Positions 25,310 through 44,554 of a stretch of 64,000 nucleotides of DNA are shown piece after piece. The first letter of the stretch is position 1; every line of letters starts with the position of its first letter. The translations under genes and the position numbers were made by a program. The notes below the pieces were generated by a model. The model did no database searches, had not been told where the DNA came from, and worked only from the letters and a program-made list of their open reading frames with translations. This DNA comes from an uncultured Candidatus Saccharibacteria bacterium (GTDB lineage: Bacteria; Patescibacteriota; Minisyncoccia; Phycocordibacterales; UBA918): NCBI GenBank assembly GCA_964638425.1, contig CAZWYM010000003.1, positions 16,289 through 80,288 of the forward strand, written 5' to 3'.

Positions 25310-25399
25310 CGGTCGAGACGAGGTCGAAGAGTGCTTAATGTAATCAAGACAAAGTCTCTGATTGCATTTAGCAACTCGTGACCAAACGATAATTTTAAG

Positions 25400-25426: not shown

Positions 25427-25431
25427 TATCT

Positions 25432-25527
25432 CTTTGAAGTCGGAGACATGTGGCCAGAAAATAAGGAGCGCGAGCAACTATATTCTCTGAGCCTGTCTTA
25501 AAATCCTATTCATAATGGATTTTAAGA
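25432..25527 (+). repeat. repeat unit copy 2: identical 20-nt box plus hairpin with different stem but identical loop TATTCATAAT
   Basis: The box is at 25432-25451. The hairpin TCTTAAAATCC-TATTCATAAT-GGATTTTAAGA is at 25496-25527. Confidence 0.5.
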
Positions 25528-25548
25528 CGAAAGCTATTCAAAACAAAA

Positions 25549-30827: not shown

Positions 30828-32255
30828 ATGAGCAACATACCAGAATATTCTACACAGTTCGAAGGTCCAATAATCATCATTGGTTTCGGTTCAATAGGTA
30901 AGGCGGTTCTTCCGCTCGTGCATCGTCATCTCATTTCAAGTACTAAGAATGTTTTTATATTCAGTCCAGACGACCGCAATCTTGCAATCGCACAAGAATA
31001 CGGCGCAACATTCATAAAGGAGGCAATCACTAAAGAAAACTACAAGCAACTCCTTGGAGACATCGTAAAGAGTAGCCCGCATCAATCCCTTATCATCAAC
31101 GTATCTGTAGATGTTGAAACGAAGGACATCATTCGCTTTGCTCAAGAAACAGGAAGTCTTTCTATAGATACCTCAATAGACCCATGGCCAGGGTTCTACT
31201 ACAACGAGGATCTCTCACTTGAAGAACGTTCAAACTACGCACTCCGCGAAAACCTTCTTGAACTCAGAAAGAGTAGTCCAAGTAAAACAACGGCAGTCTC
31301 ATGCTGTGGTGCAAACCCAGGTATGGTTTCATGGCTCGTCAAAGAAGCGCTTCTTAATCTTGCGAAAGATACCGGACTCGAAGTAACCAAACCAAAGACA
31401 CGAGAAGAGTGGGCGAAGCTCATGCAAAAGCTTGAAGTGAAGGGTATCCATATTGCCGAACGCGATTCTCAAAAGCCTGTTGTCGATAAGAAGCCTGGAT
31501 GCTTTGTAAACACATGGTCAGTCGATGGTTTCCTTTTTGAAAGTCTCCAGCCAGCAGAACTCGGATGGGGAACACACGAGAAGCAACTTCCACTAAACGG
31601 AAAGGAGCATGAGTATGGGTGTAAGGCAGGTATATACATAAACACCCCAGCACTCGGCGTACACGTACAGACATGGACACCAACGACAGGGACACACCAT
31701 GCATTTCTCGTGACACACAATGAGGCTATTTCTATTGCTGATTACTTCACGGTGAAAGAAGGGGACGAAGTGGCATATCGACCAACCTGCCACTATGCAT
31801 ACCGACCTACAGAAGCAACCATTACCTCAGTCAATGAAGTAATACGAAATAACTACACTCCACTCGCAGAAACACACGTGCTTGAAGCAGGCGAAATTGA
31901 GAGTGGTATGGACGAACTCGGCGTTCTTCTCTATGGCCACAAGAAAAATGCATACTGGTATGGTTCACAACTCACCATAGAAGAAGCCCGTGCGCTTGTC
32001 CCACACCAAAACGCAACAGGGCTTCAAGTAGCCTCTGCTCTTATTGCTGGAGCAATATGGGCAATCCGTCATCCTGAAGAAGGACTCGTCGAGGTGGACG
32101 AAATTGACTTTGAAGAATGTCTCGAGCTCCAAAAACCATACCTCGGAAAGGTAGCTGGCTACTACACAGACTGGAATCCACTCCAGAGCATGTCAGGGGA
32201 GCATATGCTCAAAGACGACGAAGACCCATGGCAGTTTTCAAATATCAGAGTATAG
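30828..32255 (+). CDS. hss: homospermidine synthase
   Basis: Collinear similarity over the full 475 aa to bacterial homospermidine synthase, with the motifs GPIIIIGFGSIG, SNYALRE, TAVSCCGANPGMVSW, GIHIAERD, NTWSV, AELGWGTHE, PTCHYAY, LGVLLYGH and NATGLQVA. Confidence 0.85.
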   Translation: MSNIPEYSTQFEGPIIIIGFGSIGKAVLPLVHRHLISSTKNVFIFSPDDRNLAIAQEYGATFIKEAITKENYKQLLGDIVKSSPHQSLIINVSVDVETKDIIRFAQETGSLSIDTSIDPWPGFYYNEDLSLEERSNYALRENLLELRKSSPSKTTAVSCCGANPGMVSWLVKEALLNLAKDTGLEVTKPKTREEWAKLMQKLEVKGIHIAERDSQKPVVDKKPGCFVNTWSVDGFLFESLQPAELGWGTHEKQLPLNGKEHEYGCKAGIYINTPALGVHVQTWTPTTGTHHAFLVTHNEAISIADYFTVKEGDEVAYRPTCHYAYRPTEATITSVNEVIRNNYTPLAETHVLEAGEIESGMDELGVLLYGHKKNAYWYGSQLTIEEARALVPHQNATGLQVASALIAGAIWAIRHPEEGLVEVDEIDFEECLELQKPYLGKVAGYYTDWNPLQSMSGEHMLKDDEDPWQFSNIRV

Positions 32256-32330
32256 GAATCCACTTTAGTTTAAATTATAGGTAATTTGACGTAATCAGAT
32301 ATTGTGGTAGAATAATCGCAGTCAAAAATT

Positions 32331-33068
32331 TTGGAGAATCACATGGAAAGTTCTTTAACAACTTGGTTTGAATGGATACTTGAGTTTCTCATATTAAATT
32401 GGGATGAAACGTTCTACAGTGCACTTGAATTACTACCGCGGACTGGTGCGGAGACATTTTGTCTTATAGCTGCAGTGTGCCAAATCGTAGGGTATTACTT
32501 GTACGGCAAGCATGTTTTAGGTGGTGAAACACGACCAAATATCGCTTCATGGGGTATGTGGTTTTTTGGAGCAGTAGTTGACCTCGTCACCTACGACTCC
32601 ATACGTGGAAGTCACTGGACAACTAATGCGGCGCCGTTTGCATGTTCACTTGGCGTTCTTGGTGTCACACTTATTATTCTCTATCTACATGTTAGAAGTA
32701 GAATGCATGGCATAAGACCTGTTTACCAAACTCTTGAAAAGGGGGATAAATATTTTTCACTTTTCGACGTAAGTGCAGCAATTGTTTGGATGCGTGGATA
32801 CGGCACATTAGGGAATTTTATTTCTGTCGGTACGACAGTATTCCAATTCTTTCCAATGTACCGCGAGACATACAAAAACCCATCAGTTGAAAAACCAGAT
32901 CCTTGGATTTGGTGGAGCTTTGCATGGGGGTTTATGGTCGTAGCAGTTGCTGTTGGTCCAGGGGCAGATAGTTGGGCGTTATACTTCTTACCACTATGGT
33001 ACCTCATGCTTCATGCAATTATGGTTCCACTCTGCCTGAGAAAAGTACCGCAAACTGCATGTGTATGA
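32331..33068 (+). CDS. hypothetical integral membrane protein
   Basis: A 245 aa ORF with about 6 TM helices and no motif recognised. Confidence 0.35.
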   Translation: MENHMESSLTTWFEWILEFLILNWDETFYSALELLPRTGAETFCLIAAVCQIVGYYLYGKHVLGGETRPNIASWGMWFFGAVVDLVTYDSIRGSHWTTNAAPFACSLGVLGVTLIILYLHVRSRMHGIRPVYQTLEKGDKYFSLFDVSAAIVWMRGYGTLGNFISVGTTVFQFFPMYRETYKNPSVEKPDPWIWWSFAWGFMVVAVAVGPGADSWALYFLPLWYLMLHAIMVPLCLRKVPQTACV

Positions 33069-33094
33069 AACTCTAATATTAGTTCTCAAATCAA

Positions 33095-33124
33095 AAGACA
33101 CTCTCACGAGTGTCTTTTTTTTAT
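33095..33124 (+). terminator. rho-independent terminator
   Basis: AAAAGACACTC-tcac-GAGTGTCTTTTTTTT. Confidence 0.55.
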
Positions 33125-33354
33125 TTAAATAAAATTCATATCTGTGGATAGCAGAATTAATTTTATAATTTCAGGATTGTGGGATGCTATAATATTAATA
33201 ATGCACTTTGGGAAAAAATTTAGCACAGGTATAAGATTCACTTTTATCTTTTGTACTGTTCTTTCAGTACTAGCTATTTTTTATTCTAAGATTATTGCCC
33301 ACGATTACGAAATACTTACCACTGAATCAGGGTTACCTGATATAGAAATTACGT

Positions 33355-35046
33355 ATGAGAATTGATCCTACATATTGTTCTTGGGACACTTCACCTTTTT
33401 TGCTGATTTTTTCTGACAACGTATCAGAGAATTTTGTTTACTATTCGCATATTCTACCGGCTCTTTTCATTCTCATTTTTATTGCCGTCCTACTGAAACA
33501 AGATTTCAGCAATAAACTTGTAAAGGTTATTGCTGTTATTGCAATGTCATTTACAGCGTGGAGCCTATCGGATCTTATGCTTTGGTCGCAGGCAAATCCA
33601 GATTACATAATGTTTTTCTGGTCTATCCTCATCTATTTTGAAATATTCATATATATAGGCTCATTGTACTTCATGTACTACTTTATCGAGAAGAGAACCC
33701 TCACTTGGGTGCATGAACTTCTTATTTTTATACTATGTATTCCTATTTTTTTATTTGCACACACATCATTAAATTTGGCTAGCTTTGATTATACAAACTG
33801 CCTCAAAGAAGCTGTTGAAGGACCGCTTGTTGCATACGCATATGCCGTTGAACTAGTTATTGCAGTTTGGATATTACTTTATTCGATTAGCGCATACTTC
33901 AAGAAAAGTATCGAAAAAAATAAAAGAGAGATTGCCCTTGCTTCTACTGGTGTTCTACTGTTTTTGTTCTCATTTTCATTTGGAAACATTTTTGGTTCCT
34001 TTGACACAAATTACGAACTTGGACAACTTGGTCTCATGGCTACGCCAATTTTTATTGGTATCCTTGCATATATCAGCATCAAGTACGGAACATTTAACAT
34101 ACGGGCGATTGGAGCTGAGATTCTTATCGTCGCAATAATTCTTCTCATTGTTTCGATTCTTTTTAATACTGATATTCAAAATATTAGAATAACAGCAGGC
34201 TTCACTGCACTCATGACATCTATTCTTGGGTACATGCTCATTAAGAGTGTTAAACGAGAGGTAAAACTCCGTGAACAAATTGAAGAACTTGCATCTAATC
34301 TCCAAGTCGCAAACGACCGGCTTAAGGTGCTCGACAAGATGAAGTCAGAGTTCGTTTCTATTGCATCACACCAACTTCGTAGTCCGCTTACTGCTATCCG
34401 CGGGTACGCATCAATGCTTGAAGAAGGAACGTACGGAAAGATTCCTGCAAAGGCAGGGGAGGCACTCAACAAAATTGTTGAGTCGAGTAGATTTATGGCA
34501 CTTTCTATTGAAGACTACCTCAACGTATCTCGTATTGAAGCAGGGAACATGAAGTATGAAATGACCGATTTCAACCTCCGTGAACTTACCGAAAAACTCG
34601 TTGACGAACTCCGCCCAGTCGCAATCAAGAAGGGGCTCGTGATGGTATTCCGCTCAGAGTGTAATGGAAGTTGTTCTATTAGTGCGGACATCGGGAAGAC
34701 ACGTCAGATTCTCTCAAACCTCATTGATAACTCTATGAAGTACACTCCAAAGGGAACTATTACTGTAGTCGCTCACGACGACCCAAAGACTAAGAAAATG
34801 CTCATCACCATTCAAGACACTGGAATTGGAATGGACATGGAAACACAAGAGGATGTATTTGAAAAATTTGTTCGAGCAAAGAACGCGAACAGCGTAAACG
34901 TAACCGGTACAGGCCTCGGTCTCTACATTGCAAAGAAGATGATTCTCGAAATGAAGGGTAACGTCACCGTACACTCAGACGGAGAAGGAAAGGGTTCAAC
35001 ATTCACCGTAGAATTCCCACTCCTCCCCGGCAAAACCATGCGGTAA
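33355..35046 (+). CDS. sensor histidine kinase with multi-TM N-terminal sensor domain
   Basis: A HisKA H-box (FVSIASHQLRSPLTAIRGY) and an HATPase_c with N, G1 and G2 boxes (NLIDNSMKYT…DTGIGM…GTGLGLYI). There are more than 6 N-terminal TM helices. The exact start is uncertain. The upstream 73-aa ORF 33144..33365 could be a further TM segment. Confidence 0.8.
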   Translation: MRIDPTYCSWDTSPFLLIFSDNVSENFVYYSHILPALFILIFIAVLLKQDFSNKLVKVIAVIAMSFTAWSLSDLMLWSQANPDYIMFFWSILIYFEIFIYIGSLYFMYYFIEKRTLTWVHELLIFILCIPIFLFAHTSLNLASFDYTNCLKEAVEGPLVAYAYAVELVIAVWILLYSISAYFKKSIEKNKREIALASTGVLLFLFSFSFGNIFGSFDTNYELGQLGLMATPIFIGILAYISIKYGTFNIRAIGAEILIVAIILLIVSILFNTDIQNIRITAGFTALMTSILGYMLIKSVKREVKLREQIEELASNLQVANDRLKVLDKMKSEFVSIASHQLRSPLTAIRGYASMLEEGTYGKIPAKAGEALNKIVESSRFMALSIEDYLNVSRIEAGNMKYEMTDFNLRELTEKLVDELRPVAIKKGLVMVFRSECNGSCSISADIGKTRQILSNLIDNSMKYTPKGTITVVAHDDPKTKKMLITIQDTGIGMDMETQEDVFEKFVRAKNANSVNVTGTGLGLYIAKKMILEMKGNVTVHSDGEGKGSTFTVEFPLLPGKTMR

Positions 35047-35059
35047 TAGAATTATATTC

Positions 35060-35896
35060 ATGGAGAAAACTCATTTTTTAAATGGCAGATTTGTTTCGGA
35101 AAGTGAGCTTCTCATTTCTCCACGTGATCTTGGGTATTCACGAGGATATGCTGTATTTGATTTTTTGGTTACTTATCATCATAGGCCTTTTATGTTAAAA
35201 AGCCATGTTGACCGCCTTTTTCGTTCAGCTGAAGCAATAACACTTTATATTCCATGGACAAAAGAACAAGTTTCGGAGTGGATATTAAAGACTCTTGATG
35301 CTAATAAAGCAATGAATACTGAAAAAGTAATACGTATAACGATTTCAGGCGGTTCCTCGTTTATACTAACTCCTACAGATTCACCAACTATTGTAATCAC
35401 AATTGACTCTATGATTTACTGCTCTCCAGAAAACTATAAAGATGGGGTTGAGGTGAATTTGGTTGAATTTCAACGCTATCTACCTCAAGCGAAGACAAAT
35501 AATTATATTGAAGCAATTCGTAGTATGAACGGATCAAATACTCAAAATATCGATGAATTGATATACCACTCCAATGGTATGGTGCATGAAGGATCTCGTT
35601 GTAATATTTTTGCTGCCATAAATGGAAGACTTCTCACCCCTAAAACTAATATTCTTGAAGGGATAACACGAGGTGTGTTACTTGATATCCTAAAATTGAC
35701 AGTTCCAGTTGTAGCTGAGGATTTTTCAGTTGATGCCTTACATTCGGCATCTGAGATATTCCTCACCGCAACAGGTAAAGAGATAATGCCTGTAACTAAA
35801 ATAAACGGTGTTCGAGTAGGAAGTGGTTCAGTTGGTACTCTCACTAAGGGGGTTATGCAACAGTACAACTCTTTTGTTCACTCAGCTCTTTGGTAG
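35060..35896 (+). CDS. class IV aminotransferase (branched-chain/D-amino-acid aminotransferase fold)
   Basis: A 278 aa ORF with fold-type IV PLP enzyme pattern. The N-terminal region matches YSRGYAVFDFL. Later motifs are EGSRCNIF and GITRG. Confidence 0.75.
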   Translation: MEKTHFLNGRFVSESELLISPRDLGYSRGYAVFDFLVTYHHRPFMLKSHVDRLFRSAEAITLYIPWTKEQVSEWILKTLDANKAMNTEKVIRITISGGSSFILTPTDSPTIVITIDSMIYCSPENYKDGVEVNLVEFQRYLPQAKTNNYIEAIRSMNGSNTQNIDELIYHSNGMVHEGSRCNIFAAINGRLLTPKTNILEGITRGVLLDILKLTVPVVAEDFSVDALHSASEIFLTATGKEIMPVTKINGVRVGSGSVGTLTKGVMQQYNSFVHSALW

Positions 35897-35911
35897 TAAT
35901 GGTTCTAATTA

Positions 35912-36724
35912 CTAACTCCACATTGATAATGAATCGTTTTTGAGTGTCAAAAACGAATTAAGTGTTAGTCTGGTCTCACCAGGGCTGATTTGTTCAACCT
36001 GATGGAAATTTCGACTGCGGAAAATAATTAAATCGCCAGTCTCAGGAAAAATCTTTGTAGGTCTTTCATTTTGTAGGAATGATGGATTAAATCCATTTGG
36101 ACCTTTTTCAAAAATATCTTCATTATAAATATTATCCTCAGGTATCCAAGGGTGATTATAGATAATTAATTCTCCCCCTACACTTGGCATCTGTAGATAC
36201 AGAACGATAGCAAATTGTTCTTCTGATGCAGATACTTCCCACCCAGGGAGTTGGCTTGGTGCGTAGTCAAAATGTAATGTACTTTTTGCCCCCATTGCTC
36301 GGACAAGACCGGAAAAATAAACCGCATTATGCATGCTAGGTTCGTGCGCTAGAGATACAACATAGTCTTTTGAAAACAACTTGATTATTTTCTGAATAGG
36401 TTCTGATACACCAGAAAACATTTCGTCCTTGACTCGGACACATTCTGGAACAAGCTTGAAATAAAGGTCCTTTCCATTTATCTTGGAGTGGTATTCTGTT
36501 GCACTTATTCCAATCCTCCCTTGTCTATACTCAGCATCTTTATACCATGATATGTCATGCTCGTTGATGTTTTTTACGATGATATCTAGTTCATTTTGAT
36601 CAAAAAAATTCGAGATCTTAATTGCTGCAATATTGTTTGTAGCTAATAAAGGTAAGAGCACCTTTGCTTCCAGATCCCTATCAGCTTCTACTTTCTTTAT
36701 TTCCCAGTCTTTTGCATATTCCAT
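35912..36724 (-). CDS. Fe(II)/2-oxoglutarate-dependent oxygenase-like protein
   Basis: An HxD (LHFDYAP)…H (NFHQVEQI)…RxT (RLTLNSF) arrangement typical of the 2OG-oxygenase facial triad plus 2OG-binding Arg. The size fits the PhyH/hydroxylase class. Confidence 0.5.
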   Translation of the reverse strand: MEYAKDWEIKKVEADRDLEAKVLLPLLATNNIAAIKISNFFDQNELDIIVKNINEHDISWYKDAEYRQGRIGISATEYHSKINGKDLYFKLVPECVRVKDEMFSGVSEPIQKIIKLFSKDYVVSLAHEPSMHNAVYFSGLVRAMGAKSTLHFDYAPSQLPGWEVSASEEQFAIVLYLQMPSVGGELIIYNHPWIPEDNIYNEDIFEKGPNGFNPSFLQNERPTKIFPETGDLIIFRSRNFHQVEQISPGETRLTLNSFLTLKNDSLSMWS

Positions 36725-36806
36725 GATGTGAATAAATTATACCACCATAAGTCATATATGTTCAGATTATTTGCAAAGTGTTACAATTTCCATACACATA
36801 TACAAT

Positions 36807-38258
36807 ATGGAGCCGGTAAATATCATTATTATTGGAGTAGGACCCCATGCTCGGAGAATTTATATTCCAATACTCATGGAGCTTTCTAAAAGTATGCCCA
36901 TACGTTTGGTTGGGGCTGTGGACCTGCAGAAACAAAAAGAAGTCGTTGATTTGTATTTGAAGGAGAAAGAATGCTTCCTAAAGGCATTATATTTTGATCC
37001 ATTTGACGCAGCAGAGGGGTTGCCAGATAATTGTATAATCACACTTGATACTCTTGTTAAAGATTTAAATATACATGGCGTGGTGATTTCTACAGAGCCA
37101 ACCGCACACAAGGTGTATGCAGAATGGGCATTAAAGCGTGGCCTGCATATTCTTATGGATAAACCTATCTCTGTGAGAAAATCTATTTGTACAGAATCCT
37201 CACAAGCACAGGCCCTAATAAAGGATTACGAGGATTTGTTAGAGTTATACAATCAGCAACAACTCATTCGACCAACTGCCTTTTCAATTAGTGCACAAAG
37301 GAGATACGAATATGGATTTGAGATGGCGAAAAAATTAATTGCAGAAGTAAGAGATCGGTTTAATATGCCAGTCACTTCAATTCAAGCCATGCACGCAGAT
37401 GGAACGTGGATGTTCCCCAAAGAGGTCCTTTCCCAAGAATCTCATCGACACTTTGATGGTTATGGAAAAGTTTCTCATAGTGGCTACCATATATTTGATA
37501 TGGTGTGGCAATTATATGAAGCTGGACTCGTCGACAAAAAACGACCAGACCACCTAGAAATTCTTTCGTCCCCATTATTGCCAAGTGGCCTTAGTATTGA
37601 TCTGAATGAAAATGATTATCAAAAATATTTTGGTCACGAGTATGAATCAATACCACTTTCGGAGAAGGAGTACAGAGAAAAGGTTAAAACATATGGTGAA
37701 ATTGACTCCTTCAATATCATCAGACTTTTAAAGGGAAACGAGAATATTTGTAATATTTCTATAAATCTACTTCATAGTAGTTTTTCCCGACGTTCATGGG
37801 CAATACCTAATGCAGACCGATATAAAGGAAACGGTCGCGTTAAGCATCAGCAGTTCATTATTCAACAAGGACCATTCCAATGCATTCAAATCCATAACTA
37901 CCAGTCAAAAGGTTCTCATGATGTTGACAATTCAACTGAGTATGGAGCTGGCGGTAATAATCATTTTGATATTTACGTCTTTCGTAATAGAGAAATGTTC
38001 GGATCTGGAGAAGCTTTTTATAAAGTATCAGCCAAGGACCTCGAGGAGAAGGAGTGTGTAAGTCGACTGAATGTTGAAAATGCAAAAGAACGTGTGATTT
38101 TAGAATTTGTAAACTTTATGCTCGGAAAAGTTAATGTAGATAATTTAAAATCAAACATAGACACACACAACATACCTGTTAAGATTATGAGTGGTGTATA
38201 TCAATCAAGTATACGACTAATTAATCATCAGAATCCTTTAATATCAATGTCAATATGA
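36807..38258 (+). CDS. Gfo/Idh/MocA-family NAD(P)-dependent oxidoreductase-like protein
   Basis: An N-terminal Rossmann motif (IIIIGVGPHARRIYIPIL) and a conserved EKP-like region (ILMDKPIS). The C-terminal extension is long. Confidence 0.5.
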   Translation: MEPVNIIIIGVGPHARRIYIPILMELSKSMPIRLVGAVDLQKQKEVVDLYLKEKECFLKALYFDPFDAAEGLPDNCIITLDTLVKDLNIHGVVISTEPTAHKVYAEWALKRGLHILMDKPISVRKSICTESSQAQALIKDYEDLLELYNQQQLIRPTAFSISAQRRYEYGFEMAKKLIAEVRDRFNMPVTSIQAMHADGTWMFPKEVLSQESHRHFDGYGKVSHSGYHIFDMVWQLYEAGLVDKKRPDHLEILSSPLLPSGLSIDLNENDYQKYFGHEYESIPLSEKEYREKVKTYGEIDSFNIIRLLKGNENICNISINLLHSSFSRRSWAIPNADRYKGNGRVKHQQFIIQQGPFQCIQIHNYQSKGSHDVDNSTEYGAGGNNHFDIYVFRNREMFGSGEAFYKVSAKDLEEKECVSRLNVENAKERVILEFVNFMLGKVNVDNLKSNIDTHNIPVKIMSGVYQSSIRLINHQNPLISMSI

Positions 38259-38890
38259 AAGGCTCAATCTATTTAATCGGCGGTGGCGAAATTGGAAAAG
38301 GTGAAACTGCAAAAATTGATAATGAGTTAATAGAAATTACTCCTGCGGACAAGACACTTGTTTTTTTTGGCACAGCAGCAGGGGATAATCGAGAGTATAT
38401 TAATACGATTGAGTCGGTTTTTAAGTCCAACCTAAAGGTTATTGCTCCAACAGAGAAAGATGGTCCTGAGTTCGCACTCTCTTCCATAAATTCTGCATCA
38501 ATTATATATCTAGGAGGAGGTACAACCGAATTATTGTTAAATCTCTTTGAGAAATGGAGGCTTGTTCAGCCACTCCGTCACGCATTAAGTCGCGGAGCGC
38601 ATCTTGTAGGAATGAGTGCAGGGGCACAAGCTTTATCAGCATGGTATGTTCATGAGGATGAGAACTCTATGGAACTGCGAAGAGGATGGGGTTTCGTTTC
38701 CAGCTGTATACTTGTACATGCAGATCAGAATTCATCAGCACAAGCGGAAGTACTCTGGGGAGATAGCCAAGATGCTAACCAAAATCCTTTTATAGCGATT
38801 GGAGAAGGTGCAGCATGGCGTGTAAATCCTTCAGGGGCATTGAAAATTGGGACCGGCAAAATATGGCATTCCAAAATCACTGAATCATAA
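38255..38890 (+). CDS. peptidase S51 family (dipeptidase E/cyanophycinase-like)
   Basis: An IYLGGGTTELL motif and the nucleophile-elbow GMSAGAQAL match the S51 family. It is translationally coupled to the upstream gene by an ATGA overlap. Confidence 0.65.
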   Translation: MKGSIYLIGGGEIGKGETAKIDNELIEITPADKTLVFFGTAAGDNREYINTIESVFKSNLKVIAPTEKDGPEFALSSINSASIIYLGGGTTELLLNLFEKWRLVQPLRHALSRGAHLVGMSAGAQALSAWYVHEDENSMELRRGWGFVSSCILVHADQNSSAQAEVLWGDSQDANQNPFIAIGEGAAWRVNPSGALKIGTGKIWHSKITES

Positions 38891-38957
38891 AGAAATGCGT
38901 TGTCCTCAATCCACTTTTTCTGACATAGTGCATTAAAAATGCCCCATTTTTTAATTA

Positions 38958-38986
38958 TTGACTATAATTATTTTCTATCGTATATT
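38958..38986 (+). promoter_or_regulatory. sigma70-like promoter TTGACT-N17-TATATT plus strong SD (AAGGAG) for AlaRS-like gene
   Basis: The -35 is at 38958-38963 and the -10 at 38981-38986. AAGGAG lies 7 nt before ATG 39032. Confidence 0.5.
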
Positions 38987-39031
38987 AATTAATAGTTTCG
39001 CTCATTGTAATCAAACATAAGGAGAATCGTC

Positions 39032-40153
39032 ATGATTAGTTCTTTGAAAGAAAGTTTCCTTGATTATCATCAGGCACGAGGGTTTTGTATATATGAGTCC
39101 TTTCCTTTGGTAATTGATGACCCTACAATCCTATTCACAAATGCTACAATAACACCATTTAAGTCCATGTTCATGGGAGAGGGGGAGAGAATAAATTATG
39201 CTCTTGTTCAGAAATGTCTACGTTTAGGAGGGACAGGGGGGAATCTTGAAACACCTCGTTCAAACATGAACTACACTTCCTTATTCGATATGCTCGGAAG
39301 CGGACTATTTGATGTTAATCAAGACTCTGCAGTAACTTACTTCGTTGAAGTACTCATCGAGCTTGGTCTCCAGAAAAAAAATCTCGTGTTTAGCACCACT
39401 TATAATTCTGGTTTTGACTTGGCTTTGGAACGAGCAGGAATAAGTGCGAGTCAAATCAGACTCTTCAACGATCCAAAAGAGATCCAGCACGAATGGAGTT
39501 TTGGGGAAGGAGATTTGCATGGTTGTGGAGTGGTGGCTTGGTGTGTTCCTGAAAGCTATCTAGGACACACTTTCGACAGTATCCCACAAGAACTTTTTCA
39601 GTATGTTCAAATAGGAAGGATAGTCCATATCGATGGTGTTGCACGAGTTTCAACTGTAGAGTTGTTCCCATACTCAGCATACGATATGGGAATCGGGTTG
39701 AATAGGGTTGAGGCAGCTCTCAATGGGAACTGTGAAATGTCTATGTATCCATGGAGAATGCTTTCGAAACAACTTCAATCTTCAATACATGGGCTTTATA
39801 AAACCGATGCCCATTACATGGCGAATCTCTATCGTGTAGCTGAGGATCTGATTGGTGAAGGGCTTCTTCCTGGGAAGAAGAAGCATGCTTATGCTCTTCG
39901 GAAAGTAGTACGATTACTTATCGAGGAGATTTGGCTAAAGTCAAAGGCATTGGTAGATATTTACACAGTGTTGCGGGAGTCGATTAACACATCCGCTTAT
40001 CGAGACTTGCTCATCCAGGTTCTTTCTCAGGAAGAAGTAGCTTTACGTGGGGTACTTTCTGTTGCCATACAAAAGCAGAAGAAGTACCCCGGCATGAATC
40101 CTGAAGAACTGCGTTCAACGTTCGGAATTCGTCCGAGCCTTCTCAAGCTTTAA
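39032..40153 (+). CDS. stand-alone alanyl-tRNA-synthetase catalytic-domain paralog (class II aaRS-like amino-acid activating enzyme)
   Basis: The 373 aa sequence ESFLDYHQARGFCIYESFPLVIDDPTILFTNATITPFKSMFMGE…QKCLRLGGTGGNLET…YTSLFDMLGSGLFD aligns with AlaRS motifs FF..GH..V.SSLVP.NDPTLLFTNAGM..FK…QRCVRAGGKHNDLE…HHTFFEMLGNFSFG. It has no tRNA-recognition, editing or C-Ala domains. The bona fide alaS is elsewhere in the window. Confidence 0.7.
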   Translation: MISSLKESFLDYHQARGFCIYESFPLVIDDPTILFTNATITPFKSMFMGEGERINYALVQKCLRLGGTGGNLETPRSNMNYTSLFDMLGSGLFDVNQDSAVTYFVEVLIELGLQKKNLVFSTTYNSGFDLALERAGISASQIRLFNDPKEIQHEWSFGEGDLHGCGVVAWCVPESYLGHTFDSIPQELFQYVQIGRIVHIDGVARVSTVELFPYSAYDMGIGLNRVEAALNGNCEMSMYPWRMLSKQLQSSIHGLYKTDAHYMANLYRVAEDLIGEGLLPGKKKHAYALRKVVRLLIEEIWLKSKALVDIYTVLRESINTSAYRDLLIQVLSQEEVALRGVLSVAIQKQKKYPGMNPEELRSTFGIRPSLLKL

Positions 40154-40380
40154 GCACTAAAAATTTTTAAGAGGTAACAAAACGAGGGTGCCAACACACC
40201 TTCGTTTTTTTATTTTGAATAGCAAGGTGAGAAAATGGGTAAATCTGATTAAATTTGTAGAGACAATCTGATCAGTTGATACCCAAGTATTCTTTTCATA
40301 TATAAAAGCATATCACTTAATATTTCATAAAGAAAATGACGCGAATAATATCGCGTCATTTAGTTTGAGGCATTACATAC

Positions 40381-41139
40381 TTAAGGAACTATATCTGCTA
40401 TTTCGTTGATGACCTGAGCCCATGTAACAATCCTCTTGATGTCTGGAACAGAATCAAATACTCTAACTTCAACTGTACCGTGTGTCGAAATTCGAATCAA
40501 ATCCCAGCACTGTCTTGGGTCTTCTTCACACCCTCTTGCACGCATAGCTTCATGGAATTCTTCCCATGAAGTATATGCCTGAGGAAGTGTGTCTGAAGCC
40601 ATTAGACGATACAGTGCCATTCTTTGCCCGTTGCAAGTATCACCCATATTTTTTAACTCATAGAAATGCTTAATGAGTCGATTATAGACAATAATTGCTT
40701 CGGTTGTATTTCTTACACCAATATGGAAATGTACCGCTGCGACTCGACAAGCAGCGAGAAGCACTTCTTGTGGGAGTCTTTCCACAATACGGGCATATCT
40801 ACCTGTTGGATCAGGATACACTTCTACAGACATCTCTTGAGGGGCCACTGGTATATGCTCCAGTTTAAGTCCGAGAGTACTAGCAGCTTCAGCAGCTGTT
40901 TTTTCAATTTGAAAAAGCTCAGCGTAGAGATTACTTAGCAAGGTTGGACTTGTACGCATTTCTAATTGACAAGCAGAAAGCTCATAACCGTATTTCCCAT
41001 TTTTCGGTAAAAGATTAAGAACCGATACCGCATGTGGAACAATTACATTGCCATCCATCAGAAAGCATTCTCGTTCAACACCAAAATGTCCTCTATGTTC
41101 AGGCTTAAAGCAAAACCTACCCGTAAACGAATTATTCAT
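40381..41139 (-). CDS. GCS2-family carboxylate-amine ligase (YbdK/EgtA-like glutamate-cysteine ligase family 2)
   Basis: The motifs HFGVERECFLMD (compare YbdK LGIELEMQVV), AVHFHIGV (compare HVHVGC) and GTVEVRVFD (compare GTVEVRVMD) are present. The start was chosen at ATG 41139, preceded by AAAGGGGTG. The ORF caller extended it to 41235. Confidence 0.65.
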   Translation of the reverse strand: MNNSFTGRFCFKPEHRGHFGVERECFLMDGNVIVPHAVSVLNLLPKNGKYGYELSACQLEMRTSPTLLSNLYAELFQIEKTAAEAASTLGLKLEHIPVAPQEMSVEVYPDPTGRYARIVERLPQEVLLAACRVAAVHFHIGVRNTTEAIIVYNRLIKHFYELKNMGDTCNGQRMALYRLMASDTLPQAYTSWEEFHEAMRARGCEEDPRQCWDLIRISTHGTVEVRVFDSVPDIKRIVTWAQVINEIADIVP

Positions 41140-41600
41140 TTCTACACCCCTTTCAAGGATAAAAGATTTAAAAGAACAAAATATATTCGAAGAATTTTTT
41201 GTTGAAATATAATCAACAAAAAAACTCCTCGTCACTGCACATGTTTAATAAACATGTAAAGGGACGAGGAGTTTTATCAACTCACGTGGTACCACCCTCT
41301 TTAGAATTTACATTTCAAAATAAATTCACTTATTGACTCATACACATACCACATTAAGGTATGCAGACATCAATTATCCCATGATTACGGAGGATGCCGG
41401 ACTTTCACTAACGCAGTAGTCACCCTTCTTCACTTGGAAGAAAATTGTGGCCCAATCTCGTACAATTTCAAATTGACGAGACCACAATATGGGTTTTCAG
41501 TGCTCAGAACGAACTACAATAACTAAATTTGATAGTACCGTAGAAAAACACTCCATGCAAATGCTGGTTAACTGAAGCGGATTTTTGTTATAATCACATA

Positions 41601-42044
41601 ATGCAATACAGCAATAATATTCAAATTGTTCTTGATATTCTCAAAAACGAAGTTGATGGGGATATTTCTAGTGCACTTGAGAAAATGACTTCAGACTACT
41701 CAATGACGTGGATGTATCAAAAAGGGGAGTCGTTTTTCCCTGTGGTAAAAAGTGACATGCCTAAGAAACTCGAAGACGTGTATCCCATACAGGGGAGAAA
41801 GTATGACATTCGAAACATTACCGAAGGGAATGATGTCGTTATGATTGAGGTTATTGAAAGCTATCCTGACCCAGAGACGGGGAAACTGTACAAAACTCCG
41901 CAAGTCATAGTCCTTGAAATGGAAGAGGGGAAGATTAAAACAGGAAGACACTACTGTGACCCTCGACTCTCACACGCCAATCTTTCAGACGAACAGATAA
42001 ATTCCGCACTCAATGACACTGATACAAAGGTAGAAATAAAGTAG
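41601..42044 (+). CDS. hypothetical protein, NTF2/SnoaL-like fold suspected
   Basis: A 147 aa acidic protein. Its size and alternating pattern fit an NTF2-like fold. The match is weak. Confidence 0.3.
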   Translation: MQYSNNIQIVLDILKNEVDGDISSALEKMTSDYSMTWMYQKGESFFPVVKSDMPKKLEDVYPIQGRKYDIRNITEGNDVVMIEVIESYPDPETGKLYKTPQVIVLEMEEGKIKTGRHYCDPRLSHANLSDEQINSALNDTDTKVEIK

Positions 42045-42047
42045 GCT

Positions 42048-42479
42048 CTAGTTTGTCCCGAGACTCGAAATTAATTTTTCGACCAAAGCTTTGATTTGAT
42101 CAAGAGTTTTTTCTGATATCTCCCGCGTCGCAAATTTCGGATTTTCGATTTCCCACCATACCACTTTTTGATTCTCACTAAGAAACTCTGGAATAAAGGG
42201 GTGCTCAGCCATAGAGATTACAACATCGAATTCCTCAATCATTTCAGGAGTAAGTTTCTTCATTCTGTTATTTCTGATACTCATCCCATTCTCTTCCATG
42301 AGTTCAAAAAAGTCAGGAGTTCGAAAGTATTTTTGGATAAGGTCATTATCTGGAGCATCATCCGCACCCACATACGTTCCAGCAGAATCAGCGTTAGATG
42401 ATTGTGTTAATTTATTATACAAAGCAGCCGCCATTTGGCTCCTAAACTGATTGTATTTGCAGATAAAGAGTACTTTCAT
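42048..42479 (-). CDS. low-molecular-weight phosphotyrosine phosphatase/ArsC-family arsenate reductase
   Basis: An N-terminal P-loop (VLFICKYNQFRSQMAAAL, a CX5R motif) is diagnostic of the LMW-PTP/ArsC fold. Confidence 0.7.
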   Translation of the reverse strand: MKVLFICKYNQFRSQMAAALYNKLTQSSNADSAGTYVGADDAPDNDLIQKYFRTPDFFELMEENGMSIRNNRMKKLTPEMIEEFDVVISMAEHPFIPEFLSENQKVVWWEIENPKFATREISEKTLDQIKALVEKLISSLGTN

Positions 42480-43444
42480 AATGAAAATGATTTTACTGGT
42501 CGCGAATAAAAGAGAACCTCCTCATCATAGCTGTTCGGAATAACACCTTGCGGACAAAAAACAACATGGCAATCAAATGGTGTAAACACGGGGCCTGTGT
42601 CACCTGAAGCAATGAGTGTCTGTGCGGGTAGATATTCAAAATTTTTTAAAGGTTTGTTCAGTGTGAATGTTTTATTGGGGAAAATTAGTGAATCATCAAT
42701 ATAATATTCAACATGTTCATGTGTAGTAACCTCCTTAACAGGTTCAATCATATTAAGATTTTGCAACAAGGCGAGAGTTGAATCTATAGCAATTTTGAAT
42801 GAACGAGGACTTTCGTGCGTACCAGACTCAATGACAAGAACAGAAGCTGGATTAGTAGTAGCTCCATAAAAACTACTAACGGGCTTTCCGATTTGAACTG
42901 TATCTATATTTGAAATAACTAATTGGATAGGGAAGCCACGTACTAAATCAGTCCGCAGTGAGCCATTGAGGTTAATGATCATTGGATCTGAATCTTGTGT
43001 TGTACTATGAATATCAAGCCCAAACTCAAATTCCTGGAAAATTGGTAAAAGTTCCTTTGTACGTAAAACTTCATATGATGAATGACTGTTGTTTTTGAGT
43101 AAATCATCCGGTAGACGGTTCATATTTACATCAACAAACCTCGCGCGAACCCTCTCTTCAGTTGTACTTGCTTTAAAATTATTTTCTGCGGCTTTTATAT
43201 TATTCAAAACAAGATAAACAGAACCTTTTAAAAGCTTCTGTCTAAGTTTAAATTCATCTAGTAAATATTGAAATACAGCGAGTCCTGAAGGTTCATTACC
43301 GTGAGTACAGGCAGTAATTCCTAAAACTGGACCTGGTTCATTTCCTTGAATTAAAACAACTCCAGGAACACCATTATGCTCCATACTCTTAATTCTATTC
43401 AGAATACCTTCGAGATCATTCATATCTATATACCGTAACAACAA
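42476..43444 (-). CDS. succinylglutamate desuccinylase/aspartoacylase (AstE/AspA) family zinc deacylase
   Basis: The motifs ITACTHGNEPSG (compare AstE ISAGIHGNE) and GLDIHST (compare HLDLHTA) are present. It overlaps the ArsC gene by 4 nt. Confidence 0.7.
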   Translation of the reverse strand: MLLRYIDMNDLEGILNRIKSMEHNGVPGVVLIQGNEPGPVLGITACTHGNEPSGLAVFQYLLDEFKLRQKLLKGSVYLVLNNIKAAENNFKASTTEERVRARFVDVNMNRLPDDLLKNNSHSSYEVLRTKELLPIFQEFEFGLDIHSTTQDSDPMIINLNGSLRTDLVRGFPIQLVISNIDTVQIGKPVSSFYGATTNPASVLVIESGTHESPRSFKIAIDSTLALLQNLNMIEPVKEVTTHEHVEYYIDDSLIFPNKTFTLNKPLKNFEYLPAQTLIASGDTGPVFTPFDCHVVFCPQGVIPNSYDEEVLFYSRPVKSFSL

Positions 43445-43486
43445 ACATCCTAAGAAGCAAAGAGGGAGAACAGGAGCTTTGTAAAC

Positions 43487-43529
43487 GGCTGGTATTTTGG
43501 TACTATTTTGTGATACCTATGAAAAAGAA
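43487..43529 (+). repeat. direct repeat copy 1 (duplicate of trpS promoter/5' end)
   Basis: The sequence CTTTGTAAACGGCTGGTATTTTGGTACTATTTTGTGATACCTATGAAAAAG. It is 51/52 identical to 44503-44554. Confidence 0.7.
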
Positions 43530-44496: not shown

Positions 44497-44502
44497 ACAC
44501 TC

Positions 44503-44554
44503 CTTTGTAAATGGCTGGTATTTTGGTACTATTTTGTGATACCTATGAAAAAAA
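44503..44554 (+). repeat. direct repeat copy 2 (native trpS promoter/5' end)
   Basis: See copy 1. It contains a candidate promoter, TTGTAA-N16-TACTAT. Confidence 0.7.

Follow-up and report, generated by a model that had tools for sequence, protein, structure and literature searches.

A five-gene cassette with an AlaRS paralog within a mosaic 12.6 kb block of a Patescibacteria genome

Do the twelve neighbouring genes at 30828-43444 of the window (the whole 64,000-nt stretch of DNA analysed here, from an uncultured Candidatus Saccharibacteria bacterium) form one acquired pathway? The initial annotation had read them in this way, as an AT-rich island for the chemistry of a modified amino acid or pseudopeptide. 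All twelve ORFs are present at these coordinates, on mixed strands as described, and eleven of the twelve domain assignments in the 12.6 kb block pass Pfam gathering scores (including LMWPc for the LMW-PTP), while the NTF2-like call is marginal (E 0.07 both to SnoaL_2 and to a PDB NTF2-superfamily protein). Enzymes suited to the chemistry of small molecules or modified amino acids are indeed clustered here, but not as the full twelve genes: the block is a mosaic rather than a single unit, and only five of its genes (ORFs 35060-40153) co-occur elsewhere. The conserved unit is a 5.1 kb cassette (35,043-40,208) of a class IV aminotransferase, a WelO5-fold 2OG oxygenase, a Gfo/Idh/MocA dehydrogenase, an S51 peptidase and a paralog of alanyl-tRNA synthetase (AlaRS), and the remaining seven genes are unrelated neighbours.

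Table 1. Cassette genes, associated signals and neighbouring features in the window
Feature	Coordinates	Strand	Evidence and remarks
Cassette gene 1, class IV (fold type IV) PLP aminotransferase, 278 aa	35060-35896	+	Pfam Aminotran_4, 147 bits
Cassette gene 2, WelO5-fold Fe(II)/2OG oxygenase, 270 aa	35912-36724	-	Pfam WelO5, 69 bits
Cassette gene 3, enlarged Gfo/Idh/MocA NAD(P) oxidoreductase, 483 aa	36807-38258	+	Pfam GFO_IDH_MocA; length from the database ortholog start, ORF reaches TTG at 36771
Cassette gene 4, S51-family serine peptidase, 211 aa, cytoplasmic	38255-38890	+	Pfam Peptidase_S51, 72.6 bits
Promoter-like site and Shine-Dalgarno (SD) upstream of AlaRS-like gene	38958-39024	+	TTGACT-17-TATATT (38958-38986), AAGGAG (39019-39024); AT-rich spacer
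Cassette gene 5, AlaRS paralog, 373 aa	39032-40153	+	Pfam tRNA-synt_2c, 79 bits
Intrinsic-terminator-like hairpin closing the cassette	40179-40208	+	12-bp stem and T-run
Ordinary AlaRS, 646 aa, with editing domain	16465-18405	+	Pfam tRNA-synt_2c, 375 bits, and tRNA_SAD
Homospermidine synthase (hss), outside cassette	30828-32255	+	E 2.5e-169, full length, to Blastochloris viridis HSS 4plp
Multi-TM histidine kinase, outside cassette, older neighbourhood	33355-35046	+	Pfam HisKA, HATPase_c
Short GCS2/YbdK-like carboxylate-amine ligase, outside cassette, ~252 aa	40381-41139	-	Pfam GCS2, 41 bits; ORF reaches 41235; own terminator 40361-40334
AstE/AspA-family deacylase, outside cassette	42476-43444	-	Pfam AstE_AspA_cat, 47.5 bits
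RhuM/Fic insertion, outside cassette	43477-44552	+	Gene 43510-44496; separate insertion at the 5' end of trpS

The cassette and its neighbours

The five-gene set was found at every distinct recovered locus with an AlaRS-like protein at least 50% identical to the one here (complete at L001, L003/L009, L004/L016, L005, L006, L007, L010-L015, L026 and L027), except that L008 carries a rearranged four-gene version from which the S51 gene is missing. The nearest relative, L027, shows 78% DNA homology over exactly 35043-40154. Flanks are different at each locus, and at L003 and L008 two sub-modules (aminotransferase-WelO5-GFO and S51-AlaRS-like) have been shuffled as blocks. The families are of similarly small size and co-distributed, with 97 clusters for the WelO5-like and 116 for the AlaRS-like proteins, and the cassette is patchy and rare among Patescibacteria. 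Here it lies between the histidine kinase and the GCS2-like gene, which are adjacent to each other in cassette-free relatives (syntenic loci L069, L064, L098 and L055). The acquisition proposed for the whole block therefore fits the cassette, given its patchy spread, its varying flanks and its absence from these syntenic relatives.

The same cannot be said of its surroundings, and hss, the kinase, GCS2, AstE/AspA, LMW-PTP and Fic do not travel with the cassette. None of hss, GCS2, AstE, LMW-PTP, the kinase or the membrane-protein genes occurs within 10 kb of it at any other locus. In relatives that lack the cassette, linkage is seen among GCS2, AstE, the kinase, the membrane-protein genes, trpS and dnaKJ (in L069 the order is mem185-mem245-HK-GCS2-AstE-trpS), which makes them older neighbours. 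Among 80 metagenome loci of the GCS2-like family (~250 aa, 305 representatives by HMMER) none carries the cassette, while a kinase adjoins GCS2 at 13 of the 80, and an AstE-like gene lies directly 3' of GCS2 at 15-20 of the 55 loci with sufficient sequence. Convergent terminators separate the cassette from GCS2 in the window as well.

These distributions bear directly on the single-island reading, in which AlaRS-like and GCS2 proteins act as ligases and S51 and AstE/AspA as amide hydrolases of one pathway tied to homospermidine chemistry. Since GCS2 and AstE do not accompany the cassette, a pathway with two ATP-dependent amide-forming enzymes and two amide hydrolases fails; hss, for its part, is missing from all other cassette loci and from the syntenic loci, and is of ordinary base composition. 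What speaks for one island is that the domain assignments hold, that an AstE-like gene does adjoin a distant AlaRS-like gene at one distant locus (L020), and that GC at 33-44 kb is 4-6 points lower than in the flanks. AT-richness, however, is only partial, seen in the cassette (0.385) and the GCS2-to-AstE segment (0.382; flanks 0.44-0.46), with hss (0.459) and the membrane genes (0.43) ordinary for the window, and because the GCS2/AstE part is equally AT-rich yet belongs to the ancestral neighbourhood, low GC is no acquisition marker here. Taken together, we regard a twelve-gene island as extremely improbable.

The AAGGAG SD, claimed as a trait of the island, precedes a single island gene, that of the AlaRS paralog, and one gene outside (25584-26102, minus strand); an SD is missing from most genes of the genome, and an SD-like motif is also seen 5' of the AlaRS-like orthologs at most other loci. 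Between AstE and trpS, a RhuM/Fic gene left out of the twelve is flanked by a 50-nt direct repeat (43477-43526 and 44503-44552, 49/50 identical). Short-read contigs of the same strain end at this repeat.

The AlaRS paralog and the S51 peptidase

The AlaRS-catalytic-domain paralog is the most distinctive member of the cassette. A housekeeping AlaRS with intact LEIGN and VDFGGGLER motifs is encoded at 16.5 kb, so the gene at 39 kb is an extra paralog, 21% identical to the window's own AlaRS, matching E. coli AlaRS(1-441) at E 1.8e-20 and scoring 73 against a TIGR00344 cut-off of 457. It comprises aminoacylation and tRNA-recognition domains only; the editing domain is missing, and the C-terminus stops right after STFGI, aligned with the canonical STYGFP (E. 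coli DTYGFP) acceptor-stem motif. R64, F85, M87, W155, D218, G220 and R225 are retained (in AlaRS R69, F90, M92, W170, D235, G237 and the motif-3 Arg, D235 being the Asp that binds the alpha-amino group), and the adenine pocket and the whole tRNA-recognition domain are kept. At the same time, the catalytic pair is altered: Q194 stands in place of E209 and R197 in place of N212, changes confined to the cassette clade.

Retention of the motif-2 and motif-3 Arg and of Asp235 means that the paralog may simply be an adenylating synthetase, perhaps one dedicated to charging tRNA with alanine or with a non-canonical amino acid made by the cassette, for use outside normal decoding (lipid, cell wall or protein aminoacylation) or for recoding. 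Its two domains are complete, an enzyme that has to accept a non-cognate amino acid would be expected to lack editing, and at one locus (L024) the WelO5-like and GFO genes are accompanied by a pair of LysRS genes and by LPG_synthase_C, a soluble aa-tRNA transferase domain of the aa-tRNA:lipid type. On the other hand, there is no tRNA gene in the window and no aa-tRNA-consuming transferase (Fem, DUF2156 or CDPS type) in the cassette, the retained W170 and G237 of the alanine pocket leave it probably still small, and E209Q removes the usual Mg-binding carboxylate. We consider such a synthetase possible, though unlikely.

Translation of the S51 peptidase starts within the end of the dehydrogenase gene, whose stop overlaps it by 4 nt. 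Alignment with cyanophycinase 7uqv places the nucleophile Ser, the His and the Glu in register, and 14 orthologs all keep S121, H155 and E184; the protein falls under the PepE and cyanophycinase equivalog cut-offs. Indeed, none of the five cassette proteins reaches a curated (NCBIfam) equivalog cut-off, while catalytic residues are invariant across all five families. No signal peptides or TM segments are visible in the five sequences, all of which appear cytoplasmic, and the cassette is not accompanied by an exporter, a resistance aaRS or a regulator.

Variant loci and known systems

The closest precedent for the cassette is the AcmF/AcmD/AcmE trio of ascamycin biosynthesis, where the truncated AlaRS-like protein AcmF acts as an N-alanyl transferase dependent on Ala-tRNA, in concert with AcmD, an AlaRS, and AcmE, a hydrolase (PMC12945691). 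AcmF carries changes, N219Q and D232E, at the same positions as those of the cassette paralog (PMC12945691). At two loci (L012 and L014) the cassette is joined by an alpha/beta hydrolase and by a truncated AlaRS of canonical type (431-439 aa). Members of a distant AlaRS-like clade share an operon with a 436-aa AlaRS of canonical type, and transcribed divergently beside it are an S66 peptidase (LdcA/MccF family; for MccF function see PMC8323819), an Asp/AsnRS-like core and two methyltransferases. These arrangements and the L024 set independently echo the ascamycin trio. The combination of dehydrogenase, aminotransferase, aminoacyl coupling and hydrolase also underlies the puromycin and cystocin pathways (PMC11641026). 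An optional YqcI/YcgG gene with an invariant CPF cysteine is found at five loci, and characterised members of this family all N-hydroxylate arginine-type guanidines in antibiotic pathways (PMC12866846). The YqcI, alpha/beta-hydrolase and extra AlaRS genes of the variant loci are missing from this window, and no description of the five-gene cassette was found in the literature searched.

Could the cassette instead serve salvage or catabolism in an amino-acid-poor symbiont? Patescibacteria rely on scavenged amino acids, S51 enzymes are dipeptidases or cyanophycinases, the aminotransferase resembles an alpha-amino-acid enzyme and an exporter is missing; imported dipeptides of the Asp-X or cyanophycin type would then be split by S51, the amino acid set free would be interconverted or degraded by the other three enzymes, and the paralog would be regulatory or accessory. 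This leaves unexplained why an apparently catalytically intact, ATP/adenosine-binding AlaRS paralog is invariantly kept, always beside S51. The recurrent extra AlaRS and LysRS genes, aa-tRNA transferases, MccF-family peptidases and YqcI N-hydroxylase point to biosynthesis, and rarity in Patescibacteria argues against a core nutritional role, making salvage an unlikely function.

Tailoring enzymes and a candidate pathway

The aminotransferase is closest among solved structures to an archaeal BCAT (5mqz, 1e-38), followed by D-amino-acid aminotransferases (1e-29), and 15 cassette orthologs all share K145 (catalytic), R92 (BCAT Arg97) and E177. The BCAT-type Arg for the alpha-carboxylate is thus kept, and it fits ordinary alpha-amino/keto-acid exchange better than amination of a side-chain ketone or a sugar ketone. 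The 2OG oxygenase of the initial annotation turns out to have the WelO5 fold, with an HxD facial triad of the hydroxylase type; H151, D153, H241 and R252 do not vary among 30 homologs, and an AF2 model (pLDDT 92.8) is matched by Foldseek to WelO5 (TM 0.8) and then to the N-succinyl-amino-acid hydroxylase SadA. The dehydrogenase (AF2 model pLDDT 87.6) is closest in fold to sugar 3-dehydrogenases, which Foldseek finds together with aldose oxidoreductases at E 1e-16, and its invariant D118-K119-P120 is the counterpart of the family's EKP motif.

Class IV aminotransferases include D-amino-acid transaminases, which raises the question of whether these three enzymes make an unusual hydroxy-, keto-, diamino- or D-amino acid for a stem peptide, with the paralog adding an alanyl branch tRNA-dependently and S51 trimming the peptide. 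The S66 (LD-carboxypeptidase-family) gene beside the distant clade and polysaccharide deacetylase neighbours at some cassette loci (e.g. L001) are in keeping with such envelope remodelling. Nevertheless, the aminotransferase, as read from the alignment, lacks the DAAT Arg-x-His carboxylate motif and keeps the BCAT-type Arg, no conserved Mur, Fem, MraY, flippase or other envelope genes adjoin the cassette, and the apparently cytoplasmic location of all five proteins is at odds with this role, which we find quite improbable.

Instead, we tentatively favour, at somewhat less than even confidence, a compact pathway to an aminoacylated small molecule, in which three enzymes equip a scaffold with an amine, which the paralog aminoacylates to give an amide that S51 cleaves. 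The WelO5-fold hydroxylase would convert C-H to C-OH, the Gfo/Idh/MocA dehydrogenase C-OH to C=O and the class IV aminotransferase C=O to C-NH2, so that an amino group would be installed or relocated on the scaffold, perhaps an amino acid (possibly arginine-like) or a sugar or nucleoside; we infer the order of steps and the scaffold from the enzyme classes only. The truncated paralog would then join alanine, or another small amino acid, to the amine as an amide, either via Ala-tRNA(Ala), like AcmF, or via its own aminoacyl-adenylate. The translationally coupled Ser-His-Glu peptidase would hydrolyse the same kind of amide, for self-protection, recycling or maturation, in analogy to AcmE, MccF and NapH, although a cytoplasmic hydrolase acting on the product looks futile unless regulated. 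An intact enzyme cassette of this kind in many ultra-small Patescibacteria is unexpected for such reduced genomes.

Gene content of the block and limits of the cassette

An ORF listing and profile searches bore out the twelve-gene list of the initial annotation and added one gene that it had missed, just before trpS (see table). None of the island proteins reached an NCBIfam equivalog cut-off, and each one looked up was a singleton at 90% identity. The homologs are labelled Patescibacteria, Saccharibacteria, Nomurabacteria or Levybacteria, so the earlier guess of a reduced genome was right. Homospermidine synthase (hss) matches 4plp over its full length (E 2.5e-169, residues 5-474 against 7-476). 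The GCS2 gene scores 41 against a Pfam threshold of 21 and 71 against an NCBIfam subfamily cut-off of 176, and at ~250 aa is shorter than a typical YbdK/GCS2 protein (~370 aa).

Genes of the 12.6 kb block and the gene preceding trpS (window positions)
Gene or family	Position	Strand	Remarks
Homospermidine synthase, saccharopine-dehydrogenase fold	30828-32255	+	Profile search; full-length similarity to the Blastochloris viridis enzyme
Membrane protein, no family	32331-33068	+	
Multi-TM HisKA/HATPase kinase	33355-35046	+	
Aminotran_4	35060-35896	+	
WelO5-family 2OG oxygenase	35912-36724	-	
GFO_IDH_MocA	36807-38258	+	ORF reaches 36771; database orthologs begin at the 483-aa ATG
Peptidase_S51	38255-38890	+	
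tRNA-synt_2c (AlaRS paralog)	39032-40153	+	
GCS2	40381-41139/41235	-	
147-aa protein	41601-42044	+	NTF2/SnoaL hints marginal only
LMWPc	42048-42479	-	
AstE_AspA	42476-43444	-	
RhuM/Fic	43510-44496		Absent from the initial annotation

We searched with the AlaRS-like protein, fetched the contigs of its homologs, scanned the family alignment against 185,579 species genomes (which yielded only 17 AlaRS-like loci) and mapped all window proteins to each locus by tblastn. Every locus with an AlaRS-like protein at least 50% identical also encodes the class IV aminotransferase (AT4), the WelO5-like oxygenase on the opposite strand, the Gfo/Idh/MocA dehydrogenase (GFO) and the S51 peptidase (loci L001, L003/L009, L004/L016, L005, L006, L007, L010-L015, L026 and L027), except for L008, a rearranged cassette without S51. 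The usual gene order is that of the window, with the GFO stop overlapping the S51 start, while the order S51-AlaRSl-AT4-WelO5-GFO in L003 indicates that the cassette consists of two sub-modules. At the DNA level, L027, the nearest relative (78%), is homologous over exactly 35043-40154 of the window. Flanks differ at each cassette locus (more than 13 loci) and include, for example, T4SS pilins and ParB, restriction-modification genes, polysaccharide deacetylases and a ribosomal release factor; hss, the membrane proteins, kinase, GCS2, 147-aa protein, LMW-PTP, AstE and Fic genes were found in none of the cassette loci by tblastn.

All-against-all clustering of the flanking ORFs across cassette loci gave only three recurrent extra genes: one for a YqcI/YcgG-like protein with an invariant N-terminal CPF cysteine (5 loci), one for a small alpha/beta hydrolase (3 loci), and one for a canonical-type AlaRS that directly adjoins the cassette in L008, L012 and L014. 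The canonical-type AlaRS and the alpha/beta hydrolase are confined to some loci (L008, L012, L014, L004) and absent from the window; in L012 and L014 the cassette is extended by all three genes, the AlaRS there being of 431-439 aa. A role of the cassette in the cell wall is highly unlikely, as this clustering found no envelope genes conserved near it. Neither did it find a conserved integrase or transposase, and no direct or inverted repeats of at least 16 nt were found at the cassette ends (35043 and 40154). A search of viral contigs found no AlaRS-like relatives and so gave no sign that phages carry the cassette.

Several cassette contigs are labelled as non-Patescibacteria MAGs (Bdellovibrionales, Pseudomonadales, Dormiibacterota). 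On one of them, labelled Bdellovibrionales, the whole cassette is present as an exact tandem duplicate with a period of 6,252 bp at the end of the contig (L007, 6101-17371), which may be a real amplification or an assembly artefact. Outside the cassette, the intergenic stretch after rpsI (25276-25531) has short DNA matches (80-88%) to L001 (1033-1074 and 17922-18020), with no Rfam match and no tRNA in that stretch.

The surroundings of the cassette have a history of their own. We searched exhaustively with HMMER for the GCS2-like family (short proteins of ~250 aa, 305 representative clusters) and used the alignment of its members to retrieve 80 metagenome loci; a metagenome scan with the AstE protein alone gave no matches. 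The cassette is present in 0 of these 80 loci. An AstE-like gene lies 3' of GCS2 in 15-20 of the 55 loci having enough downstream sequence, and TrpS or a TrpS-like protein (20 of the 80), the kinase (13) and DnaK or DnaJ (3-4) are encoded near GCS2. In one such locus, L069, the order is mem185 - mem245 - SET - kinase - unknown - GCS2 - AstE - unknown - HAD - trpS, mem185 and mem245 being membrane-protein genes, which is the order of the window minus hss and the cassette. In another (L064) asnS-trpS adjoins GCS2-AstE, and a third (L098) reads dnaK-dnaJ-trpS-like ... GCS2-AstE. From these cassette-free gene orders it follows that, in this lineage, dnaKJ, trpS and asnS have long had GCS2, AstE, the kinase and the membrane proteins beside them, and the five-gene cassette is inserted between kinase and GCS2. 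With its unrelated flanks, patchy distribution and absence from the homologous site in L069, it behaves like a mobile gene cassette.

The twelve genes had been taken for one acquired island, a claim that fails since only the five-gene segment travels together, the GCS2, AstE, kinase and membrane-protein genes being syntenic without it and hss having normal GC. A single pathway made up of all twelve genes, as first proposed, is contradicted by these neighbourhood data and is extremely improbable. We are highly confident of the five-gene unit and of the mosaic context of the block.

Several of the older or separate elements deserve mention. GCS2 and AstE, the latter an AstE/AspA-family M14/M99-like deacylase, frequently recur as a conserved pair among L031-L110, on Patescibacteria-like contigs. 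Homospermidine synthase, with its ordinary GC, is absent from the syntenic cassette-free relatives and may reflect an independent gain of polyamine capacity by a Patescibacterium. The RhuM/Fic gene is bracketed by a 50-nt direct repeat (43477-43526 and 44503-44552, 49/50 identical) that duplicates the trpS promoter-like region and first codons, the one convincing repeat pair that the repeat search gave. This repeat is also the exact point at which two short-read assemblies of the same strain stop; the gene has the look of a discrete insertion into the 5' end of trpS, an event separate from that of the cassette.

Composition proved a poor guide to these limits. GC is 43.2% for the window and 44-46% for the flanks, 38.5% for the cassette, 38.2% from GCS2 to AstE, 40.0% for the kinase, 45.9% for hss and ~43% for the membrane genes. 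The AT-richness ascribed to the island is thus real across about 33-44 kb and does not extend to its first three genes. We rejected GC as a marker of acquisition because the ancestral GCS2 to AstE segment is as AT-rich as the cassette, and because the GC of the cassette relative to its own flanks varies from -7 to +4 points in other genomes. AT-richness and the "themes" of gene function overestimated the island, and comparative neighbourhoods alone separated the cassette from its older neighbours.

An AAGGAG Shine-Dalgarno sequence had been put forward as an island trait, and in the island it precedes only the AlaRS-like gene (39019-39024); it also precedes one gene outside (25584-26102, - strand). 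In the 20 nt ahead of the start codons of 55 window genes, Shine-Dalgarno sequences are almost absent and a TATAAT-like box is common instead, which suggests that leaderless or very short-leader mRNAs are widespread. The AlaRS-like gene departs from this pattern, and its Shine-Dalgarno sequence is kept in the cassettes of most other genomes. Strong intrinsic-terminator-like hairpins lie right after the AlaRS-like stop (40179-40208, +) and after GCS2 (40361-40334, -), and more such hairpins lie 3' of both membrane genes. Within a 366-bp intergenic region, a 27-nt inverted repeat (41221-41275; arms 89% complementary and 1 nt apart) overlaps the GCS2 ORF at its upstream end and may be an operator or a terminator.

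The AlaRS paralog

The genome encodes an ordinary AlaRS of 646 aa with an editing domain (tRNA_SAD) at 16465-18405, 21% identical to the 373-aa paralog, and this rules out the paralog as the housekeeping AlaRS or as part of a split one. The housekeeping enzyme is itself short, with catalytic, tRNA-recognition and editing domains and apparently no C-Ala domain. Against the AlaRS model TIGR00344 the paralog scores 73.4 bits, the cut-off being 457, and it is accordingly not predicted to be a canonical AlaRS.

We aligned the paralog to E. coli AlaRS(1-441) and CPR AlaRS sequences, with residue roles taken from this alignment, a review of AcmF and general class II knowledge. The paralog retains the motif-2 Arg (R69, aligned with R64), the adenine-stacking Phe (F90, aligned with F85), M92, W170, D235 (D218), G237 and the motif-3 Arg (R225). 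Throughout the cassette-associated clade Gln194 stands in place of E209 and Arg197 in place of N212, whereas a distant AlaRS-like clade (at most 38% identity, without the cassette) retains Glu and Asn at these positions. The helical tRNA-recognition domain is complete, and its invariant C-terminal STFGI aligns with the canonical STYGFP motif, which in E. coli is DTYGFP and reads acceptor-stem G3:U70; PGNK is aligned with PSNEN of the E. coli enzyme. The protein ends ~10 residues past STFGI, and the editing and C-Ala domains are absent. By the alignment, the paralog thus has a retained adenine and amino-acid site, a complete tRNA-recognition domain and a changed catalytic pair, and its gene is adjacent to S51 everywhere except in L008.

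Could the paralog be a dedicated synthetase that charges tRNA with an amino acid made by the pathway? The residues of an alanine-sized pocket are retained, and we found neither a tRNA gene in the window nor a transferase that would consume the product. No tRNA or known RNA family was matched at gathering threshold in the window, and a scan of 24.0-26.3 kb at a laxer E-value was also empty, so a dedicated tRNA, riboswitch or T-box is lacking there. We consider such a synthetase rather unlikely.

The distant clade, which keeps Glu209 and Asn212, has a second conserved cluster around it (L018, L020, L021 and L022; e.g. L021, 3269-9597). In this cluster the AlaRS-like gene is operonic with a gene for a 436-aa canonical-type truncated AlaRS, and genes for an S66 (LdcA/MccF-family) peptidase, a 376-aa Asp/AsnRS-like core and two methyltransferases are adjacent and divergently transcribed.

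Partner enzymes of the cassette

The S51 protein scores 72.6 bits against the Pfam threshold of 23.9, and its triad of Ser121 (nucleophile), His155 and Glu184 is invariant and aligns with that of cyanophycinase. At the same time, it falls below the PepE equivalog (34.5 against 156 bits) and cyanophycinase (32.8 against 126.6 bits) cut-offs. No signal peptide was seen in its sequence.

For the WelO5-like protein, an AF2 model (pLDDT 92.8) matched WelO5 best in Foldseek (TM 0.8), followed by SadA, an N-succinyl-amino-acid hydroxylase. Residues H151, D153, H241 and R252 are invariant. We rejected a halogenase reading, which needs HxG/A, and the invariant HxD triad (H151-x-D153 ... H241) makes the enzyme one of hydroxylase type. 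With only 97 clusters the family is very small, and its distribution is essentially that of the cassette.

The AF2 model of GFO (pLDDT 87.6) has a complete, enlarged Gfo/Idh/MocA fold, with a Pfam score of 34.5 against 24 and a full-length fold match at E 1e-16 (target-normalised TM 0.7-0.79). Its nearest folds are sugar 3-dehydrogenases and aldose oxidoreductases, and D118-K119-P120, an EKP-type motif, is invariant. The GFO family is larger, with 1,685 matches and two further conserved contexts besides the cassette. In L024 (3188-13949) GFO is found with a WelO5-like protein and a 2-hydroxyacid dehydrogenase, with two LysRS proteins (one of class I; the other of class II, 824 aa long and extended at its C-terminus) and with a soluble LPG_synthase_C (aa-tRNA transferase) domain; this locus also has arginine and SAM decarboxylases and comes from an abundant, non-CPR-looking organism with COX2 nearby. 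The other context (L023, L025, L111 and L112, ~50% identical) reads SHMT - (Aminotran_5/DegT) - GFO - ThDP enzyme - SDR - two unknowns - GT1 glycosyltransferase - NUDIX or adenosine deaminase.

The aminotransferase (Aminotran_4, 147 bits) falls between the BCATs of archaea (1e-38) and the D-amino-acid transaminases (1e-29), under all equivalog and subfamily cut-offs (e.g. 168.6 against 363 and 146.5 against 277), with its catalytic Lys (K145) and the BCAT-type carboxylate Arg invariant. By these alignments the cassette comprises five predicted enzymes with intact catalytic residues, in a conserved, translationally linked arrangement of two rearranging sub-modules, and it should not be filed under AlaRS, PepE/cyanophycinase, BCAT/DAAT or WelO5 halogenases.

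Possible function and relation to known systems

The oxygenase (as a hydroxylase), GFO (as a secondary-alcohol dehydrogenase) and the aminotransferase would together make up a standard relay from C-H through C-OH and C=O to C-NH2. The AlaRS paralog could then attach alanine, or a different small amino acid, to the amine formed by this relay, and S51 could hydrolyse an amide of the kind made by the paralog. The scaffold might be an amino-acid side chain or else a sugar or nucleoside, and the acyl donor might be the paralog's own adenylate or an aminoacyl-tRNA. We put forward this model tentatively, at somewhat less than even chances.

Three independent neighbourhoods echo the theme of the ascamycin pathway described below: the extra genes of L012 and L014, the distant clade with its AlaRS and S66, and L024, where the WelO5-like/GFO pair keeps company with LysRS and an aa-tRNA transferase domain. 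A salvage or catabolic role of the cassette would fit S51 and the aminotransferase, but would leave unexplained both the invariant AlaRS paralog and the recurrent company of aaRS, aa-tRNA transferase and MccF-family proteins, and we regard it as unlikely. Every characterised member of the YqcI/YcgG family is an N-hydroxylase of arginine-type guanidines that works in an antibiotic pathway (PMC12866846), which hints that some versions of the cassette may involve an arginine-like moiety.

Full-text literature searches found no description of the AlaRS-like family or of the cassette, the sole relevant match being work on AcmF of the ascamycin pathway (Streptomyces sp. 80H647), which offers the nearest precedent for the proposed mechanism. 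AcmF is a truncated AlaRS-like protein with aminoacylation and tRNA-recognition domains and the substitutions N219Q and D232E; it takes Ala from Ala-tRNA(Ala), which the AlaRS AcmD supplies, and puts it on a sulfamate amine, and the hydrolase AcmE strips the alanyl group again (PMC12945691). The paralog is likewise cut down to these two domains (by alignment from the N-terminus to (S/D)TYGFP, compared with the published description of AcmF) and is substituted at the AlaRS Asn212 position (N219Q in AcmF, N212R in the cassette clade). It also has a hydrolase alongside, which partly recalls the AcmF/AcmE/AcmD set, with a canonical-type AlaRS in only some cassettes (L012 and L014). The product of AcmF is a small molecule carrying an N-alanyl amide, and equivalent chemistry may be proposed for the paralog. 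The differences are that AcmF keeps the Glu209 equivalent, while the cassette clade has E209Q with N212R and keeps Asp235 and both ATP-binding arginines; that the cassette hydrolase is of the S51 family rather than an alpha/beta hydrolase; and that the tailoring genes are unrelated to sulfamoyl-adenosine biosynthesis and the hosts are Patescibacteria, not Streptomyces. Canonical AlaRS shares with the paralog the class II fold, the motif-2 and motif-3 arginines, the adenine-stacking Phe, Trp170, Asp235, Gly237 and the tRNA-recognition domain to (D/S)TYGFP, and differs from it in length, in its editing and C-Ala domains, in Glu209 and Asn212 and in scoring far above the paralog against TIGR00344.

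The likeness to puromycin, cystocin and A201A pathways (Pur10, Pur4, Pur6, NapH) is one of pathway logic, with secondary-alcohol oxidation, transamination, amino-acid attachment and a dedicated amide hydrolase (PMC11641026), and the cassette scaffold need not be a nucleoside. In those pathways alcohol oxidation is NAD-dependent and attachment of the amino acid is proposed to depend on aa-tRNA (PMC11641026); the GFO fold, nearest to sugar 3-dehydrogenases, is in keeping with this logic. Unlike them, the cassette has a class IV aminotransferase in place of DegT/Pur4, an AlaRS paralog as coupling enzyme in place of Pur6 and an extra 2OG hydroxylase, and it is without NUDIX, phosphatase, methyltransferase, acetyltransferase and efflux genes.

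MccF cleaves the aminoacyl amide of aminoacyl-nucleotide antibiotics (microcin C) as self-immunity (PMC8323819). The cassette peptidase, with its intact triad, is of the same Ser-His-Glu serine peptidase type as MccF and PepE/cyanophycinase, though MccF belongs to family S66, found beside the distant AlaRS-like clade, and the cassette enzyme to S51. The oxygenase, by fold and Pfam membership, resembles free-substrate Fe(II)/2OG oxygenases of the WelO5/SadA type, SadA being an N-acyl-amino-acid beta-hydroxylase; it is ~15% identical to WelO5 and differs from it in having HxD in place of the halogenase HxG. The cassette would best be placed among the clusters in which an aaRS paralog aminoacylates a small molecule, from which it differs in a new active-site signature, a new partner set and an unexpected host phylum.

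A bolder reading, which we consider a long shot, is that of a self-contained five-gene pathway in ultra-small, host-dependent Patescibacteria, in which a repurposed AlaRS core would load an amino acid onto a new amine on a nucleoside- or arginine-like scaffold. Its product would be a mimic of the aminoacyl-tRNA end or of an aminoacyl-adenylate, a puromycin- or ascamycin-type inhibitor of translation or of an aaRS, with S51 providing immunity. If this were true, aminoacyl-nucleoside antimetabolites would have a new enzymatic route, and a phylum held to be almost devoid of secondary metabolism would have a chemical weapon or a means of manipulating its hosts.

As the cassette is only 5 kb long and its catalytic residues are intact, heterologous expression offers a direct test. 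The AlaRS-like family would be the second, independently evolved case after AcmF of an AlaRS core in non-translational amide formation, with an E209Q/N212R site. Patescibacteria (CPR) are noted for their minimal biosynthetic capacity; the cassette would be among the very few dedicated small-molecule pathways in these bacteria, and could bear on how epibionts interact with their hosts or competitors.
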